From IMG/VR virus record IMGVR_UViG_2703718837_000001: a stretch of 49,704 nt of DNA, one strand, 5' to 3'. The notes below the pieces were generated by a model. The model did no database searches. It worked only from the letters and a program-made list of their open reading frames with translations, and was not told the DNA's origin. Of this stretch, positions 12,736 through 39,067 are shown piece by piece. Source of the DNA: a virus. Taxonomy: Duplodnaviria > Heunggongvirae > Uroviricota > Caudoviricetes. The translations under genes were made by a program, and so were the position numbers. The stretch's first letter is position 1, and every line of letters begins with the position of its first letter.

Positions 12736-13437
12736 ATGATTGAACAGCAAAAGCAATGGGTGTTTACTGAATTAGTAAAAGACCCCAATAACATCGAGCA
12801 ACTAATTTCATACACGATTTACAAAGGTTTCAAAAATGAAATAGCCGATAATGCTCGTAAGATGGGCAAGACTGAAGATGAGATCAATGAGGAGTTAGCA
12901 AAATATCACAACTATTGCATTAGTTCTCAAAAGCAATTAGATGTTTTTAGAGATAAAGCTAAAAACACTCTTGACGCTTATATTTTCACCGCTAACCATA
13001 ACATGATGAAACGGTTTAATGCGGAAATTATTAAAATAAAAAACAACTATGATAAAGAACTTGAACTAGCGCAAAAAAAGTTAAAAATTGCCGAAAAAAA
13101 AGCATTAAATAAGCTGTCCAAAGGTGCGGTTCTCTACAGCCAAAAAATTAAAGAGCCAGAGCATCTCTGGGATAAAATCCTTGATTTATTGTGGAGACTT
13201 ATGAAGTTTCTGTTCTCTGGCGTACCTAAACTTTTTGCTACTGCATTTTCTGTTGGTCTAATGTTCACAATTTATACAGCTTTCGACGAAGATGCCACGA
13301 CAGGTTTGAGAAAAGGGCTATATAAAATTGTTGATATGACTGTACCAGGAAAAGATATTCACGAAACCACAGATAATATAACCAATAGTGGCACAGAAAA
13401 AATGTCATCTTCAAATTCCCAAGCGCAGCAAGGATAG
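12736..13437 (+). CDS. Hypothetical protein with coiled coil and C-terminal transmembrane helix, AT-rich accessory gene
   Basis: 233 aa; hydrophobic segment LFATAFSVGLMFTIYTAF; Lys-rich helical N-terminal part; no good RBS. Confidence 0.5.
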   Translation: MIEQQKQWVFTELVKDPNNIEQLISYTIYKGFKNEIADNARKMGKTEDEINEELAKYHNYCISSQKQLDVFRDKAKNTLDAYIFTANHNMMKRFNAEIIKIKNNYDKELELAQKKLKIAEKKALNKLSKGAVLYSQKIKEPEHLWDKILDLLWRLMKFLFSGVPKLFATAFSVGLMFTIYTAFDEDATTGLRKGLYKIVDMTVPGKDIHETTDNITNSGTEKMSSSNSQAQQG

Positions 13438-13443
13438 GTGATG

Positions 13444-13872
13444 TTATAAGCCGCGCAGTGATTTCGGCGCGGCAAACGTCTCAATCATCTTTTCCGCGAT
13501 TGCCGACCAGGTGTGACACTGGACCTTTTCAGCATTTTTCACGCGATCAACGCGAGCAATAACCTCATCCCAATCAATCCGCGACTTGATAACCATATGG
13601 TTCACCAAATCCAGGCGATCCGGCGGAAGGCAATCGGGCGGCGTTAATATCAACGCTCCACACATTGCCGCCTCAAGAACAGTTAATCCAAGGCTTTCGG
13701 GATGCGTAACGATAAAAACGTCACTCTTACGCAATTCAGCTGCAAATTCGGTTGCTGGTACCGGCGTCCGTCTGTATGGGGTTACCGATATATTCCCCGG
13801 ATCAATGGTAATCAATCCGTCATCGGTCAACGTTCTGGCCTCATACGGAACGGTCAGACTCTGAAGGTTCAT
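13444..13872 (-). pseudogene. Glycosyltransferase C-terminal-domain fragment (GT-B fold), 5'-truncated
   Basis: 142-aa ORF with ...HPESLGLTVLEAAMCGALILTPP... typical of GT4 C-terminal domains; no N-terminal domain upstream (frame runs into a tRNA-like fragment and then the next gene). Confidence 0.45.
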
Positions 13873-13998
13873 AAGGATACTTAAGGAGTGATCAAAACCA
13901 CTAACATCAAATGCAGCGTGGTCTACAAAAATACGCAGAACATCGTCTGTTTTGGTTTCATCGACGCATGTGCCATACGCCGTACAACTACCAAATAA

Positions 13999-14030
13999 GG
14001 TGTCCCCTACCGGGCTTGAACCGGTGGCTG
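13999..14030 (-). other. tRNA 3'-end-like fragment (T-arm plus acceptor 3' strand)
   Basis: Minus strand reads ACCGG-TTCAAGC-CCGGT-AGGGGAC-A-CC: perfect 5-bp T-stem, canonical 7-nt T-loop, 7-nt acceptor strand; no matching 5' half upstream. Confidence 0.35.
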
Positions 14031-14168
14031 TGCGATTATGATCCCTTTGAAAAATAAATGCAGATCTAATAGGTTGTGTTATTTACTCATTGGCACAGAT
14101 TGCCATTACTTATCTAGTTTTAGCCATTTTTACCGCACTTCATCGCTACTAGCCTATGTTTCTTTATG

Positions 14169-15104
14169 TTAGAATGGTACATTGTCATCCATCTCAAAGT
14201 CTGGGGGTGCAACAGATATTCGATGAATTTCATTTCTTTCCATATCCATCATTTGATCCTCCTGCTCCCCATCATCGTACCACGATGAAGTGTCTACCTC
14301 TAAAGCTTCAGATATGACTTCAAATGTTTCAGGAGAGTCTAAGTGAGAAGCCATGTGCAACGTGAACGGATAACTTTCTTCTAGGCTAACCCCATCATTC
14401 CTAGAACCATATTCTTGAGTAACATAGACAGTACCGGAAGCATATATATTGATGTACTCATCATCAATCGACGTGATTCCAAATTCTTCGACTTCAGTGT
14501 AATCTACATACGCATGATTCGCGATAGTCACTAGGTTTTCAGGCATAGAGCTTACCGCCGTGTCAATAACTGCATTTCTAATTTTATCTTCGAGAGTACG
14601 AATTAATTCATCTCTACAAATATGTATACCATTTAGTATTTCTGTAGCGATCTGCAGTATTTGTTTGGCCTTCAGGAAGAACTCTTGAGGTGATGGATGC
14701 ATATATTTCTCTGTTATATGCGTATATTTATTTAAGAAGAAATAAAGCTTAAGCATCTCATCTATTCTTTCATTCGACTCCTCCAGGAACTCTTCCCCCA
14801 AGTACGCATCTGAAATTTTAGCTTGAGAACAGTATTTTAAACGCTGTCTTCTAGATATTTCGTAATGTTCATGTTCTCTCTTATACCACGATGCTTGTAA
14901 TAATTTATCATTCGGAGATTTTTTCTCGATAATATGCTTTATTAGCTCGCGAATTGAAAATGCAAAGTTATGAAAACGTAATGGGTTGCCATGTGATGCA
15001 TAATTTCGCAAACAAGCTGTGAATAATTCTTTTTCAAAATCAGCTTCGAGGTGACTCATAAAATCATTCACAAAATCAAGAGATTGTAGTTTTTTAAGCT
15101 TCAT
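14169..15104 (-). CDS. Hypothetical protein with SSB-like acidic C-terminal tip (…PPDFEMDDNVPF)
   Basis: 311 aa; AT-rich; helical N-terminal part with no OB-fold signature; last residues resemble the E. coli SSB tail PPMDFDDDIPF. Confidence 0.6.
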   Translation of the reverse strand: MKLKKLQSLDFVNDFMSHLEADFEKELFTACLRNYASHGNPLRFHNFAFSIRELIKHIIEKKSPNDKLLQASWYKREHEHYEISRRQRLKYCSQAKISDAYLGEEFLEESNERIDEMLKLYFFLNKYTHITEKYMHPSPQEFFLKAKQILQIATEILNGIHICRDELIRTLEDKIRNAVIDTAVSSMPENLVTIANHAYVDYTEVEEFGITSIDDEYINIYASGTVYVTQEYGSRNDGVSLEESYPFTLHMASHLDSPETFEVISEALEVDTSSWYDDGEQEDQMMDMERNEIHRISVAPPDFEMDDNVPF

Positions 15105-15914
15105 CGTGTAACCTTATATTCCTGTCTCAGATTTAATATCGGATTCAACCGAATCCTCTTCTTCTAAATTTTAAAGTCGTGTAACATTACAAAATATTCA
15201 AGGTTAAATTGAACATATATCATTGTTATTTAGATGTAAGTATATCTGAGCACTCGTTACAATACCAGAATATTACCATCATTCATCATAAAGTAACTAG
15301 CGAAGGTGTGGCGGAAACGTAAGTAAGTTGTTCTCCAGGTAATTCAATACCTGTTCTTTCTAAATAGCTGCGCGGAATAGTGATCTACTTTCGTCCGCCC
15401 TTGCAGGGCGAGACATTAGGTCGGCGTCCCCTACCTGACCGTGCTGCATCAGGCTTGAGTGTGTTGCCCATATGCAACATACCACACATCAGTAAACGGC
15501 AAGTGTAGTAGTATTAGGCGCAGAAATTTAGTACAGCCCAGAATGCGCCGTAACAATCAATAAACCACTACACCCGCGCCCTGGCTGCAATTCGGTAACA
15601 GGGGATCCCCCCTAGCTTCCAGCGTGATTAGCGCCTTCAGCATGACGGAATATACCCGTAAATACGAGGAACTCTACCCAAAGGCTGTTAAGAACCGGCT
15701 GTTACGCTGAATGAAAAAGGACGTAACAGGTAAGGACGCTGACCAGAAGATGGCCCCTTCTCGTTCATCTGGTTAATCAAACCAGCGCCCTTGCCTGTTA
15801 TGCCTCCTCGTTCCCTAATACACAGACGGGGACAACCCCGTGGTGTCAGGCTTCTTAGGCCGCAACCATCATCAGATCATCGTTTGCATTTACTTTAATG
15901 GTCAGTTTGTGACT

Positions 15915-17235
15915 GCTCCCCGCCCTGTCGGGCGAGGCTTCCCACTTCTCAGGCCACTACCGTCTGTGCGACGGATTTACGCTGGCCTCCATGGGCGGAG
16001 ACGACGAGTCCCGCCGCCTGTAGTTCCAGTATTCCTTTTTGCCGGATGTTGAGTGCCGCATTGATATCGCGGTCGTGCTCTGCTCCACATTCAGGGCATC
16101 GCCAGATGCGTTTATGAAGCGGCATTTCCGGCATTTTGTAACCACAACAATAGCAGGCTTTCGAACTGGCAAACCACTGGTCGAGTTTTACTAGGTGAAC
16201 GCCTTTTTCCGCTGCCTTGTACTCCAGCTTTGTGATGAAGCTATGCCAGCCTGCATCACCTATCGCTCTTGCCAGATTGTGGTTTTTCATCATGTTGGCT
16301 GTTTTCAGCGTCTCGACAATTACCGCTTGGTTTTCGTCAACAATTGCACGAGAGAGCTTGTGTTGAAAATCAGCACGGGCATTAGCCACCCGTTCGTGTA
16401 ACGCTGCCAGACGGATTGTGGCCTTTTTACGATTCGCGCTTCCCTTTTGCTTGCGGGATAAGGCTTTTTGTTTGCGTCGCAGATTACGGCTGGCATTGAT
16501 GAGATGGCGGGGATTTGCAATTTTTACCCCATCAGACTTGATGGCAAAGTGCGATAATCCCATATCTAGGCCAGTAACTGTTGATATCAACGTGGGTTTT
16601 GCCGGAGCTTCCATGCCATCATCACAGAGAATTGAAGCATAGTATTTCCCCGTTGCTGAACAGGTGATAGTGATGCTTTTCAGCTTTCCATGAAGTTCAC
16701 GGTGAAGGCGTGCTTCTATTAGGGACAGTTTTGGGATTTTGATGGCATTATCCAGCACCTTAATCCCGACACAGTGATAGCTCGATTGTTTTCCGTGTTT
16801 ACGTTTAAACGTCGGGAACCGCGCTTTCAGCTTCGGATTAAAAAAGTTGGAAAATGCCACATCAAGATTAATTACCGCCTGTTGCAACGCAATAGAATCA
16901 TATTCTTTAAGCCATCCATACCTGCGGGATTTCTTTGCCACTGCAAGCAGCGGTTTCAGATCGTTACGCGGACTTAAATTTACTCCATGTCGCTGGTAAG
17001 CATGTTTTTTGATGTGAAGAGCTTTGTTGTACGCAAAGCGCACTGCACCGAACTGGGCATTGAGGTACTCTGCCTGTTCTGGTGTCGGGTAAATGCGTAC
17101 TTTTGTTGCTCTTAACATAGTCACCGCTCATTGATACAGGCTTTTTATGCTAACACCGTAATGATTTTTTTAAAGCCCTGTTGGCTTTTCGCCTTATATA
17201 CCCGCCCGCATTAGGCGAGGGTTTACGGCGTTTTT
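15915..17235 (-). mobile_element. IS200/IS605-family element carrying tnpB only (boundaries approximate)
   Basis: Intact tnpB flanked by similar GC hairpins of the CCGCCC-loop-GGGCGAG type at 15925-15940 and 17196-17216; no tnpA. Confidence 0.55.
15949..17124 (-). CDS. tnpB: TnpB (OrfB) RuvC-like RNA-guided endonuclease homologue
   Basis: 391 aa; N-terminal MLRATKVRIYPTPEQAEYLNAQFGAVRFAYNKAL; RuvC-I D in TGLDMGL, RuvC-II E in IVETLK, zinc finger CYCCG...CPECG, RuvC-III D in HDRDINAALNI. Confidence 0.9.
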   Translation of the reverse strand: MTMLRATKVRIYPTPEQAEYLNAQFGAVRFAYNKALHIKKHAYQRHGVNLSPRNDLKPLLAVAKKSRRYGWLKEYDSIALQQAVINLDVAFSNFFNPKLKARFPTFKRKHGKQSSYHCVGIKVLDNAIKIPKLSLIEARLHRELHGKLKSITITCSATGKYYASILCDDGMEAPAKPTLISTVTGLDMGLSHFAIKSDGVKIANPRHLINASRNLRRKQKALSRKQKGSANRKKATIRLAALHERVANARADFQHKLSRAIVDENQAVIVETLKTANMMKNHNLARAIGDAGWHSFITKLEYKAAEKGVHLVKLDQWFASSKACYCCGYKMPEMPLHKRIWRCPECGAEHDRDINAALNIRQKGILELQAAGLVVSAHGGQRKSVAQTVVA

Positions 17236-17470
17236 CGCTAAACCGCCGCAAAGTCGCTAACCATGACGAAACCTCTGAAAAAAATGCCCACCCGAAGATG
17301 GGCAAACTGGATGGAAGCTCGTTACGCACTTCGGAGTTGCCTCTTAGGCGCATGGTCAACCTGGCAACTCGGTGGTTTGTCTGGGAGGACTAGGCCCAGC
17401 CATGCTTACCGCCGCGCCTGTCGCGGCTAACAGCTAAATCGCTCTAAAAATCACGATTCATTGATTCGAT

Positions 17471-17487
17471 ATTACACTAATAAATTT
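17471..17487 (+). promoter_or_regulatory. P1 C1-repressor operator-like site
   Basis: ATTACACTAATAAATTT (15/17 to consensus), between the IS left end and the 3' end of the methyltransferase gene. Confidence 0.4.
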
Positions 17488-17488
17488 A

Positions 17489-20400
17489 TTATAGCAATAT
17501 TGCTATAACGTCATGAGCAACACCACGAGTGTCTCCCTTACAAGACACAGAACGTCTGGCAAAAAGAGGTTCCACTCTGAAGCCACTGTCCTGATAAAGT
17601 TCTCTGATGTTTGGCGCGCCACTGTTAGTAATGAGAACCTTTGCACCTCGGCGATGAGCATCCGTCAACAGAGACACCAGGCGTTTTTGCTCTTCAAACT
17701 TAAAGTCATGACCGGAATAGTTCGTGAACCCCTCTGTATTGGGGAGCGGTTCATACGGCGGATCGCAAAAGATGACATCTCCTTCTCCGGCAGCTTCAAT
17801 CACCGCTGCAAAATCACCGCATACAAACTCAGACCGCCCTTCCGCACCGAGGAAGGCTTCCATCTCCTGTAATGGAAAATGCGTAGACTTATACTTCCCA
17901 TACCCGACATTGAACTCACCGGCCTGGTTGTAGCGCGTCAATCCATTAAAACAATGTCGGTTCAGGAACAAAAACGCCGCTGCGCGATGTAAATCATCAT
18001 AGACTTGTTTGTTAAACGCATTCCGTACTGCCAGGAATCCCTCCTGGGTGTTGTAGTCCAGGAAGAAACGATGTGCCAGAGTGATAAGTGAATGCGCCTC
18101 GCGTTGCAGAGTCTTGTAAAAGTTAATCAGGTCAGCATTCACATCATTTAGCAGATTTTCCTGATATCCGGCATTCATGAAGACAGCTCCGCCACCAACG
18201 AAAGGTTCAATCAGGCGCTTCCCTTCTGGCAAATAGCGAAAGATTTGTTCCAGAACACCAAATTTTCCACCAGCCCATTTGAATATGGGCCGTTCGAATT
18301 CTGCCGCTGGTTTAACCTTTCGCTCTTTTGTTTCACTCCCTTCTTTTTGCCGACATGCAGCCTTAGTAATCCGATCGCCAATCCAGCGCATTACTGGTAT
18401 TGCCATACTATTTCCGATCGCTTTGTAACGCGGTCCGTCAGCTGCAAGCATCGCGGCCTCTTCTTCGTTTAAATCAGGATAGTTATTGCGAAGGTATGCT
18501 AGTTCATCTGAAGAAACTTTTTTACGCTTTCCCGTAGGGATCAACGTATGCCAATCAGGAAAACCTTGCAGCCTTTCACATTCGACAGGGGTAAGACGGC
18601 GCATTCTATCGTCGCCGAGCAATACAATTGGTGCTTCATGGTTACATGTCAAAGTTGGTGCCGAATTATCGGTTTTTATCTCAGCCCCTCCTTGCCCATG
18701 TGCCATGGCAATTATGTTTGTATCATCGCAAGATCTGATAGCGATGTTTGAAGTATATCTGGTAGTTTCCTTCCCCTCGCCTCTGCTCGGCGCAATATCC
18801 CGGCGCTCGCCTTCGAACTCAAAAAGTACCGTTGCGGGATCGAGGTCTGTTCGAGCACTTGCGACAACAAACACGCGTCGGCGTCGTTGTGCCACTCCGA
18901 AGTATTGGGCATCAAGGATTCTCCAGGCCACCTTTCGCTGCGGTCCATAAATACAACCACACTGCGGCCACTTTGGAGCATGGCAACCGGTTTTGCCATC
19001 CCACCGCCAGAACGCGTTACTTTTTCCTGATTCAGGTCGATCACCTGGTTCAAATGGCGCATCTTCTCCAGCCAATCCGGCAAGGAAACATCCGAAGGCG
19101 TTATCTGCCGATGACAAGACCCCTGGGACATTTTCCCAGACGATAACGGCTGGTTTGAGAAATGACTCAGCCCGTTTGTCGTCAATTGCATTTGCAAGCT
19201 CCACATACTTTAAAGTTAGCGCGCCACGCTCATCATCAAGCCCACCACGTAATCCAGCGATACTGAATGCCTGACAGTTATGGACCACCGCACCATTGAG
19301 GATATAGGAATGATCACCTTCGACTTCTATGTTGTATACAGTATCTAGGCCTACCGATTTAAACTCTTTGACTGTTCGTAAAAGCATTCCATGAGCCAAT
19401 CTTGATTTACGTGACAATTTCTGCGGGCAGATTGTTACCTGATAATAATTCCGTTGATTTACCACGCGATCCTCAATCACTTTTTTGGGCTCAACTTCAA
19501 TAAAGCTGACCGAAGAAACATAACCACAAGTCTGTGACAACTCCGCAACGCCCCAAGCAAGCGCAGGACTAACACTATTAATTCTAAATCCCGCTTTACC
19601 ACTTGGTGTCCCATCAGTATCAAGATAGCCTTGTAAAAACACATGACGCAATGGATGCGACATCACCCATGCAGGGATACGCTTAGCATGGCTTAACTCG
19701 CCAAAATGTTCATTAAGCCAATTGGCATAACACGTATCATTCAAGGTTACTTTGATGCTCCCTCGGATTTCGCTTGCCACGGAAAATATGTTTTCTGGTA
19801 TGCGGCAATGAAACTTTCTCAATTTCTGGCAATTTATGCCAAAAACAACCGCCTTCTTAGATTTACCTCTCCATCTCCTAATATATCCATCGCCAACATA
19901 AGCGCCCGCAAGATACATAGCCTGTTCTTCAGACAAGAACCGAGAACAAATATCTGGAGATGCAATATTGAAATTAGTTAGAGCACACCATTGATATCCC
20001 GGCATATCACATGCTGCTCGCCATTCCGGTTCAGACAACAACTCTCTCTTAAAATATGTGCCATTTTTCCGGGTGTTTTGGGCTTTCCACCGAACCGCCA
20101 GGAAGGGATGGTCATTGGTTGTTCTTATACCTAAAGGCTGCCCAACGGCATTAAGTAACCCCGTATTAGCTATTTTTGAACCAACTCTTTTTACTTGTTG
20201 TAACCGCCCGAGATGACTGACTACGTAATCGCCAGGGCAAACATCTTCTATTGGTTTATAACCATTTTTACAAAGAACCATATGCCCCGCGGTAAAACAT
20301 GGTGTCCCTCCCACCAGCACATCAGGGGCTTCAATTTCTCCGGCCTGGACTTTTTGGGCGAGTTTTGTCATGTCGCCAAGGTTCGCGACATGGGGCCAGC

Positions 20401-20530
20401 GGTGCGCAAGAACGGCAGAGGGAAAAGGCTCGATTTCAGCAAACCACGCCGGACGCATACCCAACGGTTCCCATGCAATGCTCGCGGCTTCAATTCCACT
20501 GCAAACAGATCCATAGCACAGCTCTCTCAC
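17489..20530 (-). CDS. dmt: Bifunctional DNA methyltransferase: N-terminal C5-cytosine MTase (intein-interrupted) fused to C-terminal Dam-type N6-adenine MTase
   Basis: 1013 aa. C5 motifs: CSGIEAAS (I), GGTP/CQAFS (IV, split by intein), VWENVPG (VI), QRRRRVF (VIII). C-terminal about 270 aa match Dam: [21 protein letters not shown]. Confidence 0.9.
19277..20299 (-). other. Intein (Hint domain with LAGLIDADG homing-endonuclease core) inside the methyltransferase gene
   Basis: 341 codons from Cys78 ([28 protein letters not shown]) to ...ILNGAVVHN, followed by Cys(+1) of CQAFS; block B TTNDHPF; [11 protein letters not shown] and [10 protein letters not shown] motifs. Confidence 0.85.
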
Positions 20531-38753: not shown

Positions 38754-38809
38754 AGTTACGGCCTCACAATCAGGTTTAACAACCTGCTACCCGCTGCTAA
38801 ACAGGTGGC

Positions 38810-38900
38810 AGGACGTGACGGGGTTAGCAGACTGGCGATTGTGAAACCAGCAGGCCGAAGCCTCCCCATCACGCCCCACCATAATTTGGGCGTAACGCGG
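38810..38900 (-). ncRNA. Candidate c4-like antisense RNA of the immI region
   Basis: Segment contains TCACAATC, complementary to GATTGTGA next to the SD of the 73-codon ORF, and CTGCTAACC, complementary to two GTTTAGCAG copies at 38794-38806 and 38961-38973 on the same transcript. Confidence 0.35.
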
Positions 38901-39067
38901 TTTTACGGACACAAAAATACCGCAATATCGGATATCTGCGGCTGTCCGCACAATCATTCAGGCTGCTAAACCCGGTCGCAGAATTTGCTACGACGGCGAA
39001 ACTATAAGCCTGAACGATTAAAAGGTCAATATGATGCGAAAAGATAGCATTCGCGACTTAAAAATAC

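Follow-up and report, generated by a model that had tools for sequence, protein, structure and literature searches.

The subject of this report is a gene encoding 311 aa plus a stop codon, located on the minus strand at 14169..15104 of a 49,704-nucleotide stretch of viral DNA (IMG/VR record IMGVR_UViG_2703718837_000001; the whole of this stretch is referred to below as the window), whose product ends in a close copy of the C-terminal tip of the single-stranded-DNA-binding protein SSB. The protein is a stand-alone member of the pP_pnuc family, in which a two-domain core is followed by a disordered acidic tail. The best explanation that can be offered for it, put forward tentatively and at slightly less than an even chance, is that it is an immunity effector of the superinfection-exclusion or abortive-infection type, borne by mobile elements, whose SSB-like tip docks on proteins that normally bind SSB tails. 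The pP_pnuc family was known beforehand, with no function described for it; the tail-bearing variant is new.

The open reading frame (ORF) runs from an ATG at 15104 to a stop codon at 14171-14169, while the plus-strand frame over 14169-15104 is riddled with stops and closed to coding. The start codon of the coding sequence (CDS) can be taken as correct because the N-terminus, MKLKKL, is invariant among homologues. An earlier reading of the window from its sequence alone (the original prediction) had described an AT-rich gene of 311 aa at this position, and this is borne out both by the minus-strand ORF and by the GC content, which is 0.32-0.41 in the CDS as against roughly 0.48-0.54 in the flanking DNA. 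The translated protein ends in ...RISVAPPDFEMDDNVPF (or, in a longer excerpt, ...SVAPPDFEMDDNVPF), and the part of it that imitates SSB comprises aa 300-311, PPDFEMDDNVPF (14172..14207, minus strand). The tip of E. coli SSB, commonly called SSB-Ct, is PPMDFDDDIPF; when the two are aligned from the C-terminus, F, P, two D and one further P are identical, and the pairs I/V, D/N, F/M, D/E and M/F are conservative. The final residues, E-M-D-D-N-V-P-F, together with what precedes them, have the arrangement that marks the SSB family, namely a disordered linker followed by an acidic tip of the type D-D-D-[IL]-P-F. They lie at the end of a C-terminal extension, aa 278-311 (14172..14273, minus strand), that was delimited from the C-termini of homologues, from predicted local distance difference test (pLDDT) scores and from charge; it amounts to some 34 aa of disordered or low-confidence acidic linker with a net charge of about -10, and 277-aa relatives do not have it. 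An ending of this kind exceeds chance expectation: of the 401 six-frame segments in the window that reach 50 aa, the CDS itself is alone in having an acidic end that closes with PF, and when 620 kb of fetched loci were examined for ORFs of 80 aa or more that end in this way, all those found belonged to the pP_pnuc family (none among about 1713 others). With P-F and two Asp identical, and with the tip kept among homologues, the resemblance to SSB noted in the original prediction stands.

That relatives have evolved an SSB-like end more than once makes it very likely that the tail is functional. Short relatives of 277 aa, which occur in Pseudomonas, Shewanella, Vibrio, Methylomonas and others, end at ...VDTSSWYE. 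The tailed enterobacterial forms are of 305-316 aa (E. coli, Klebsiella, Yersinia, Enterobacter, Pantoea, Ewingella, Edwardsiella) and carry an extension of 29-40 aa, with a net charge between -7 and -13, in which a variable acidic middle leads to a constant end, D[DE]xxPF. Position-wise counts over 20 representatives of the clade to which the window protein belongs give F as the last residue (position 0) in 20/20, P at -1 in 17/20, D or E in 19/20 both at -4 and at -5, and a hydrophobic residue at -8 in 15/20, the consensus being hydrophobic(-8)-E-x-D-[DE]-x-x-P-F-COOH; the tip is conserved among homologues whose linker drifts. A second tailed clade (Huaxiibacter, Rahnella, Serratia; 338-355 aa) is approximately 36% identical to the first, and its extension consists of a confidently predicted extra helical subdomain and then a 26-aa disordered tail ending in DDDLPF, YDDLPF, DNDIPF or x-[D/E]-F. 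In a Huaxiibacter-type protein that was modelled (P0121, 345 aa, model m3ad2c8cbdc33) this subdomain is seen as three helices, aa 280-322, lying between the core and the DDDLPF tail and containing a conserved KRKLFPEL stretch. If the two tailed clades are designated A and B, identity between them is 35%, whereas A reaches up to 60% and B up to 45% with untailed proteins, and both the pairwise identities and a neighbour-joining distance tree (calculated without bootstrap) place an untailed protein as the nearest relative of every member of a tailed clade, before the other tailed clade. Since, in addition, the extensions of the two clades can be aligned only at the tip, the tip must have been gained at least twice, or else kept against repeated loss. 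More distant members of the family end in ...NNFDDDVPF, ...FLKESPF, ...ADNEPF, ...DNDDLDF or ...DIRSDF, and short acidic stubs lacking a terminal Phe, such as GDDA and GVENELEEIEA, are frequent. An add-on consisting of a disordered, acidic linker that closes with Phe, in many cases in the exact form D-D-x-x-P-F, is thus both recurrent and selected in the family.

The core to which the tail is attached matches two Pfam domains, in the correct order and at full length: pP_pnuc_1 (PF18165; aa 17-152, 14649..15056, minus strand; E 1.8e-34, 118.7 bits against a cut-off of 26.3) and pP_pnuc_2 (PF18166; aa 163-276, 14277..14618, minus strand; E 2.1e-33, 115.5 bits against a cut-off of 25). Both models are matched in 46/46 aligned relatives. 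The PADLOC model Aga_Nuclease (PDLC02413) is matched at 2e-62, with 208.7 bits, over model positions 5-267 of 267, and in PHROGs the match is to phrog_29508, a family of unknown function; NCBIfam has no model for the protein. Pfam labels both domains "predicted pPIWI-associating nuclease", but nuclease activity is here a prediction of the databases rather than a finding. A search of 1.84 billion representative sequences yielded 777 clusters of the family at 50% identity, typically of 275-290 aa, which implies that a member of the family as a rule consists of the two-domain core and nothing else, and that its gene as a rule is solitary.

An AlphaFold2 (AF2) model calculated from the alignment of 46 relatives (pLDDT 86, predicted template modelling score 0.75) comprises a helical N-terminal domain, then a long helix with a sheet of 3-4 long beta strands corresponding to pP_pnuc_2, then the tail, in which pLDDT drops from 55 to 34 and is below 50 for aa 295-311. 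The original prediction had proposed that the N-terminal region lacks an oligonucleotide/oligosaccharide-binding (OB) fold and is not that of an SSB, while allowing that it might prove to be a divergent SSB, in which case the tail would be ordinary. Pfam, the model and the fold comparison speak against this: there is no match to PF00436 or any other Pfam SSB model, and the N-terminal domain is helical with no OB fold, so that the protein is not an SSB and that explanation was rejected. Structure comparison found no clear likeness of the model to any solved structure, nor any restriction endonuclease (REase) fold; a sequence search against PDB chains gave nothing at E values up to 1, and a scan of the 46 members for weak Pfam matches revealed no recurrent HEPN or other nuclease family. 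Conserved columns of the 46-sequence alignment do, however, point to a candidate active site at R33-N-Y-A-S-H38 (14991..15008, minus strand), where R33 never varies, H38 is conserved at 90% or more, and the string continues as R33-N-Y-x-x-H38-G-N-P-x-R-F-x-N-F. As a sequence string alone, its Rx4H pattern agrees with the HEPN motif Rx4-6H. A second polar motif, T128-H129-I-T-E132-K133 (14706..14723, minus strand), is invariant or nearly so in alignments of relatives. Charge is distributed very unevenly: the N-terminal domain has a pI of 7.8, close to neutral, as against 4.05 for the C-terminal domain and tail; pP_pnuc_2, which closes with a conserved DTSSWY, contains 18 D/E and 1 K/R; and the core has a net charge of about -16 to -19, making the whole protein very acidic.

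The genomic settings of the relatives bear on what such a protein might be for. In P2/186-like prophages, representing five to seven independent lineages in Klebsiella, Enterobacter, Pantoea, Yersinia and others, the start codon of the tailed gene comes 1-17 nt past the integrase stop, and the gene, co-directional with cI-int, presumably forms part of the lysogenic transcript. In two viral contigs (L061 and L062, 6001-6804) the same slot after a P2-like integrase contains an untailed allele, ending ...VDTSSWYE, and since the integrase there is 94% identical to the Klebsiella P2-like one, it follows that tailed and untailed variants swap at a single prophage locus. Of the clade-B members, one was found in a P4-like satellite, adjoining an Mrr nuclease gene, and one shares an integrase island with a Gabija-like pair. 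An untailed relative in Pseudomonas aeruginosa (L006) lies directly upstream of genes for a 1277-aa Dsr1 (SIR2; 8944-12777) and for PD-Lambda-1 (13280-14512), while others are in a prophage that carries umuDC, or in the vicinity of genes for SieB and H-NS. No partner gene recurs among the 101 neighbours examined at 26 genome loci, where integrases, NERD, Abi_C and IS110 are the families met most often; in the window itself the neighbours are a dbn fragment, an int remnant and an IS605 tnpB. Solitary and patchy occurrence in prophage and defence loci has the hallmarks of a mobile immunity or exclusion gene, and the location of relatives in defence islands and at the end of a lysogenic operon argues for such a gene rather than for one directed against defence.

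The window copy differs in its setting, as the window DNA is a P1-like (IncY) phage-plasmid, closely related to the P1-like phage SJ46. Proteins 100% identical to the window protein are encoded on many E. coli P1-like plasmids, and the gene is rare, being present in 18 of 5426 complete E. coli genomes, in 17 of these 18 on P1-like plasmids. Where P1 has the order gene 5 - dbn - ban - trnI - tciCBA - upl/plp - tRNAs - dmt, the window has gene 5, two AT-rich ORFs, a dbn fragment, the tailed gene, an integrase remnant, an IS605-family tnpB and dmt. A segment at 13999..15377, consisting of the 3' end of int, the tailed gene and what lies downstream, has 81% DNA identity to the end of a Klebsiella P2/186-like prophage (blastn, L003:7756-9115 against the window), including about 170 nt past the gene. 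Directly upstream of the CDS, at 15125..15372 (minus strand), tblastn with three P2-like integrases detects a frameshifted integrase remnant corresponding approximately to aa 260-333 (E about 1e-15 to 1e-17), and CP080139 has a 'site-specific integrase' pseudogene, annotated by the pipeline PGAP, at the matching position. At the other end, 13999..14025 (minus strand) can be read as the 3' half of a tRNA, with T-arm ACCGG/TTCAAGC/CCGGT, acceptor strand AGGGGAC, discriminator A and CC, and this is a probable attachment (att) core; ARAGORN found no complete tRNA over the cassette region, and an Rfam scan of it gave nothing, the P1 C4 RNA alone being detected and that elsewhere. Homology to the Klebsiella prophage stops at 13999, coinciding with the tRNA half, which suggests that the cassette was captured as int' - gene - att'. 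On this evidence the window copy is a cassette of P2-like origin (int remnant, gene, probable att core from a tRNA) that was moved into the ban region of P1.

Plasmid CP103610 carries the cassette with neither the insertion sequence (IS) nor the two AT-rich ORFs, so that the cassette is autonomous and those ORFs, considered as possible partners in one unit, could be rejected and placed outside it. The ORFs themselves, 12285-12677 (plus strand, 130 aa, phrog_34496) and 12736-13437 (plus strand, 233 aa, phrog_25194), lie between tail gene 5 and the dbn fragment, belong to PHROGs families of unknown function, are present neither in P1 nor in CP103610, and have marginal PADLOC matches to PDC-M64B and LeoBC (E about 0.004-0.009). 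Comparison of 13999-17488 with P1 (L001 6966-10948) shows that the tRNA genes, tciABC, the DnaB-like helicase gene ban and most of dbn are absent, the lost cargo of the ban operon having been replaced by the IS605-family tnpB (15949-17124), the P2-like int remnant and the tailed gene; the dicF-like region, the C1 operators and the promoter Pban (17471-17498) are kept. An operator search, which gave 8 matches against 0.39 expected, placed two of the 8 at the end of dmt (17471..17498, minus strand), and together with alignment to P1 Pban/Obanab these locate the bivalent C1 operator and Pban there. Pban is the nearest recognisable upstream promoter co-oriented with the CDS.

SSB-type tips are by no means confined to SSBs in phages. 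A scan of viral contigs (loci L073-L192) for phage ORFs of at least 60 aa that end in DDDIPF-TAA collected 114, and 33-35 of these match Pfam SSB models. The non-SSBs include three SF2 helicases (ResIII/DEAD + Helicase_C, 562-610 aa), one archaeo-eukaryotic primase (AEP) domain and one DnaB C-domain; besides these there are three DUF669 and three Pam3_Gp34 proteins and about 70 with no Pfam match, the last containing a recurrent family of 73-76 aa (MRExFxEALxxKYEAEI...). Examples may be found at L096:4839-6524, L120:942-2771, L185:4519-6078 and L077:2622-2846. As roughly a third of the 114 match SSB, with helicases and a primase among the rest, the tip seems to be transferable, as a module, to phage proteins other than SSBs, which suggests that it is widely traded in phage-host conflicts.

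How an effector with such a tip might operate can be set out as follows. Activity would reside in the two-domain core, aa 1-277, with the cluster formed by R33-N-x-x-x-H38 and T-H129-x-T-E-K in the helical N-terminal domain as the candidate site, and the disordered acidic linker of about 34 aa would present the copy of the SSB tip. The tip could then dock into those sites, made up of a hydrophobic pocket and a basic ridge, at which replication, recombination and repair proteins bind SSB tails, candidate partners being ExoI, RecQ, PriA and chi of the host, along with those polymerases, helicases and recombinases of phages that work with SSB-type tails. By docking, the effector might either be brought to where phage DNA is replicated, or to the replication-recombination machinery, or else be switched on when a phage protein, or a host protein redeployed during infection, captures the tail as bait. 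A more specific form of the second option, which is possible but distinctly doubtful, is that the tip imitates the host SSB tail as a decoy, such that phage replication or recombination proteins, or redeployed host SSB partners, bind the bait and thereby activate or position a solitary toxic effector. This would amount to sensing by a guard that mimics SSB, and to an equally tentative degree one may suppose that it evolved convergently, at least twice within one effector family, using the very peptide that phages graft onto helicases and primases. We infer a defence role, an enzymatic activity and a binding partner for the tip, the last of these serving for targeting or for triggering, and some role in SSB-type docking or as bait is the best-supported inference as to what the tail does. 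Should the tip indeed dock on proteins that bind SSB tails, no immune-type effector would have been shown earlier to enter the SSB interaction hub by means of the hub's own peptide; the case would supply a simple rule by which a system of one gene might locate or sense the replication of phage DNA, and it would give a first functional handle on a family of some 800 clusters, mostly solitary, that the databases label 'Argonaute-associated nuclease'.

Several considerations nevertheless weigh against an SSB-docking immunity effector. In uninfected cells the genuine SSB tails, present in thousands, would presumably be competitors of the tail. A terminal [DE]F that lacks Pro is seen in many of the tailed relatives, and the target may therefore be something other than the classical SSB-Ct pocket. 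The P2 slot can be filled by untailed alleles, from which it follows that the tail is dispensable for the basic function of the family. Overall acidity as strong as that seen here is unusual in an enzyme acting on nucleic acid. On the P1-like plasmid the tailed gene has no cI-int promoter but lies downstream of the C1-repressed Pban, with an IS between them, and to judge from this arrangement it may be expressed in lytic growth and not in the lysogen. In the literature, finally, no experimental study of any pP_pnuc family member was found, nor anything relevant on an SSB tip carried by a defence protein, and in the passages located in the 2013 pPIWI paper the pP_pnuc domain is absent from the description.

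Among the alternatives, the one that deserves most attention is that the acidic tail acts within its own protein, as an autoinhibitory pseudo-substrate lying on the active site of the N-terminal domain, from which infection (through ssDNA, a basic phage protein or proteolysis) would displace it. The likeness to SSB would then reflect the same physical solution and not shared partners, with T7 gp2.5, T4 gp32, SSB and the C-terminal domain of Hfq as models. Unlikely as this is judged to be, it has attractions: the N-terminal domain is the sole part of the protein that is not acidic, the stubs GDDA and GVENELEEIEA are common in the family even where there is no terminal Phe, and C-termini that combine sensor and autoinhibitor are known in prophage abortive-infection (Abi) proteins, CapRel of the P1-like phage SJ46 being an example. 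Autoregulation by an acidic tail is moreover known for SSBs and for Hfq (PMC10359462, PMC5606850). Nonetheless, AF2 leaves tail and tip undocked from the core in both tailed clades (tail pLDDT 30-45), and a search for a docking site, in the form of core residues shared by both tailed clades as against their untailed relatives, turned up nothing convincing, in particular no basic or hydrophobic substitutions common to both. A plug that worked by electrostatics alone would also have no need of a near-invariant P-F-COOH, or of the D-[DE] spacing. The same conservation tells against regarding the tail as a chance or neutral extension without function; disordered and poorly conserved as the linker is, the tip is maintained while the linker drifts, it arose repeatedly in extensions that are not homologous, and no such end was found among some 1700 control ORFs. 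Either that idea or its companion, a divergent SSB (which, as already described, is contradicted by the lack of an OB fold and of an SSB Pfam match), must be considered very improbable.

The original prediction had itself suggested, as plausible, a counter-defence or replication-hijacking strategy, in which the SSB tip of a non-SSB protein titrates or re-routes host ExoI, RecQ, PriA and chi for the benefit of the phage-plasmid. The non-SSB protein with an SSB tip is real, and the tip is conserved; the proposed role, in contrast, is less supported than one in defence, and seems improbable. It is true that strong overall acidity is a feature of DNA-mimic inhibitors, that the gene occupies the place of the early, C1-controlled ban operon, and that DDDIPF tips occur on phage replication proteins too. 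But the places where relatives reside are chromosomal defence islands and, at the end of P2-like prophages, the lysogenic operon, and in these an inhibitor of host repair would be costly; the PADLOC model of the family is that of a component of a defence system; most of the family has no tail; and the invariant R/N/H/E/K motifs point to an enzyme or a ligand site and not to a passive mimic. That a low-copy prophage protein should titrate partners in competition with thousands of SSB tails is in any case hardly to be expected. As to the names 'pPIWI-associating nuclease' (Pfam) and 'Aga_Nuclease' (PADLOC), these might be taken to imply an effector of an Argonaute system, dependent on a prokaryotic Argonaute (pAgo) encoded elsewhere and with a tail that is incidental. 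Given that no PIWI domain turned up in any large ORF of the window, in the 25 commonest Pfam families of the 101 neighbours at 26 genome loci, or in 8 annotated loci of close and distant relatives, that none of the 31 genome loci has an Argonaute gene in the neighbourhood, that no neighbour recurs, and that EcbAgaN, the BPAN nuclease that has been characterised, bears no relation to the protein (hhalign probability 0.1%), this can be given scarcely any credence. An SSB-docking immunity effector accordingly remains the preferred reading.

Some further features of the window may be recorded here. The methyltransferase gene dmt (17489-20530, minus strand) encodes 1013 aa as against 754 aa in P1, and Hint and LAGLIDADG domains at aa 77-361, within the C5-methylase part, identify an intein with a homing endonuclease; in CP103610 the dmt product is longer still, at 1095 aa. 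The P1 C4 antisense RNA and its a1/b1 target are present at 38801-38886 and 38955-39007 (minus strand; Rfam RF01695, RF03163), confirming that the window has a P1-type immunity region.

It remains to compare the protein with systems already known. ExoI, RecQ, PriA, chi and RecO are among the proteins that take hold of SSB by its tip, and the window tip resembles that of SSB in being an acidic P-F-COOH peptide on a disordered linker, with D at -4/-5 and hydrophobic residues at -2 and -6/-8. It differs in being attached to a protein that is neither an OB-fold protein nor an SSB, in having a linker that is short (about 34 aa) and acidic where that of SSB is rich in Gly, Gln and Pro, and in having N or S at position -3 where SSB has D. 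The SSB tip is likewise described as binding many partners, ExoI and RecO included (10.64898/2026.04.29.721553; PMC7913777). The T7 proteins offer a precedent for a Phe-ended acidic tail as a docking handle that can be carried by more than one protein, and [DE]F is likewise the ending of many relatives of the window protein; the difference is that the T7 proteins are components of the replisome, whereas the window protein is a predicted effector from defence-type loci. The gp4 helicase of T7 has an acidic, Phe-ending tail that docks on T7 DNA polymerase. In T7 gp2.5, an acidic tail with an essential C-terminal Phe binds the same polymerase (PMC12339929).

With respect to the PADLOC Aga_Nuclease/pP_pnuc family, the window protein is a full-length and high-scoring member, set apart by the lack of an Argonaute neighbour at the loci examined and by an SSB-like tail that most of the family does not have. 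EcbAgaN (bAgaN, BPAN; long-B pAgo), the sequence of which was taken from the supplement of its paper, is a 390-aa PD-(D/E)xK enzyme with a D-EVK site (PMC10620215, PMC13535254). What it has in common with the window protein is the label of a two-domain 'pAgo-associated nuclease' and the concept of an autoinhibited effector; neither an REase fold nor a PD-(D/E)xK D-EVK motif was found in the window protein or its model, and membership of the BPAN bAgaN group was rejected on the hhalign result given above, EcbAgaN matching PADLOC Aga_Helical-REase instead. A parallel in mode of life is HepS of Gifsy-1 (PMC13043305), a single abortive-infection gene that is carried by a prophage, has no conserved partner and presumably combines sensor and effector. 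HepS has no similarity to the window protein in sequence or fold, however, and was set aside as a homologue; it is an analogue only. Other abortive-infection proteins that stand alone in prophages are CapRel of phage SJ46 and Tin and Old of P2, and the target of P2 Tin is itself a phage SSB.

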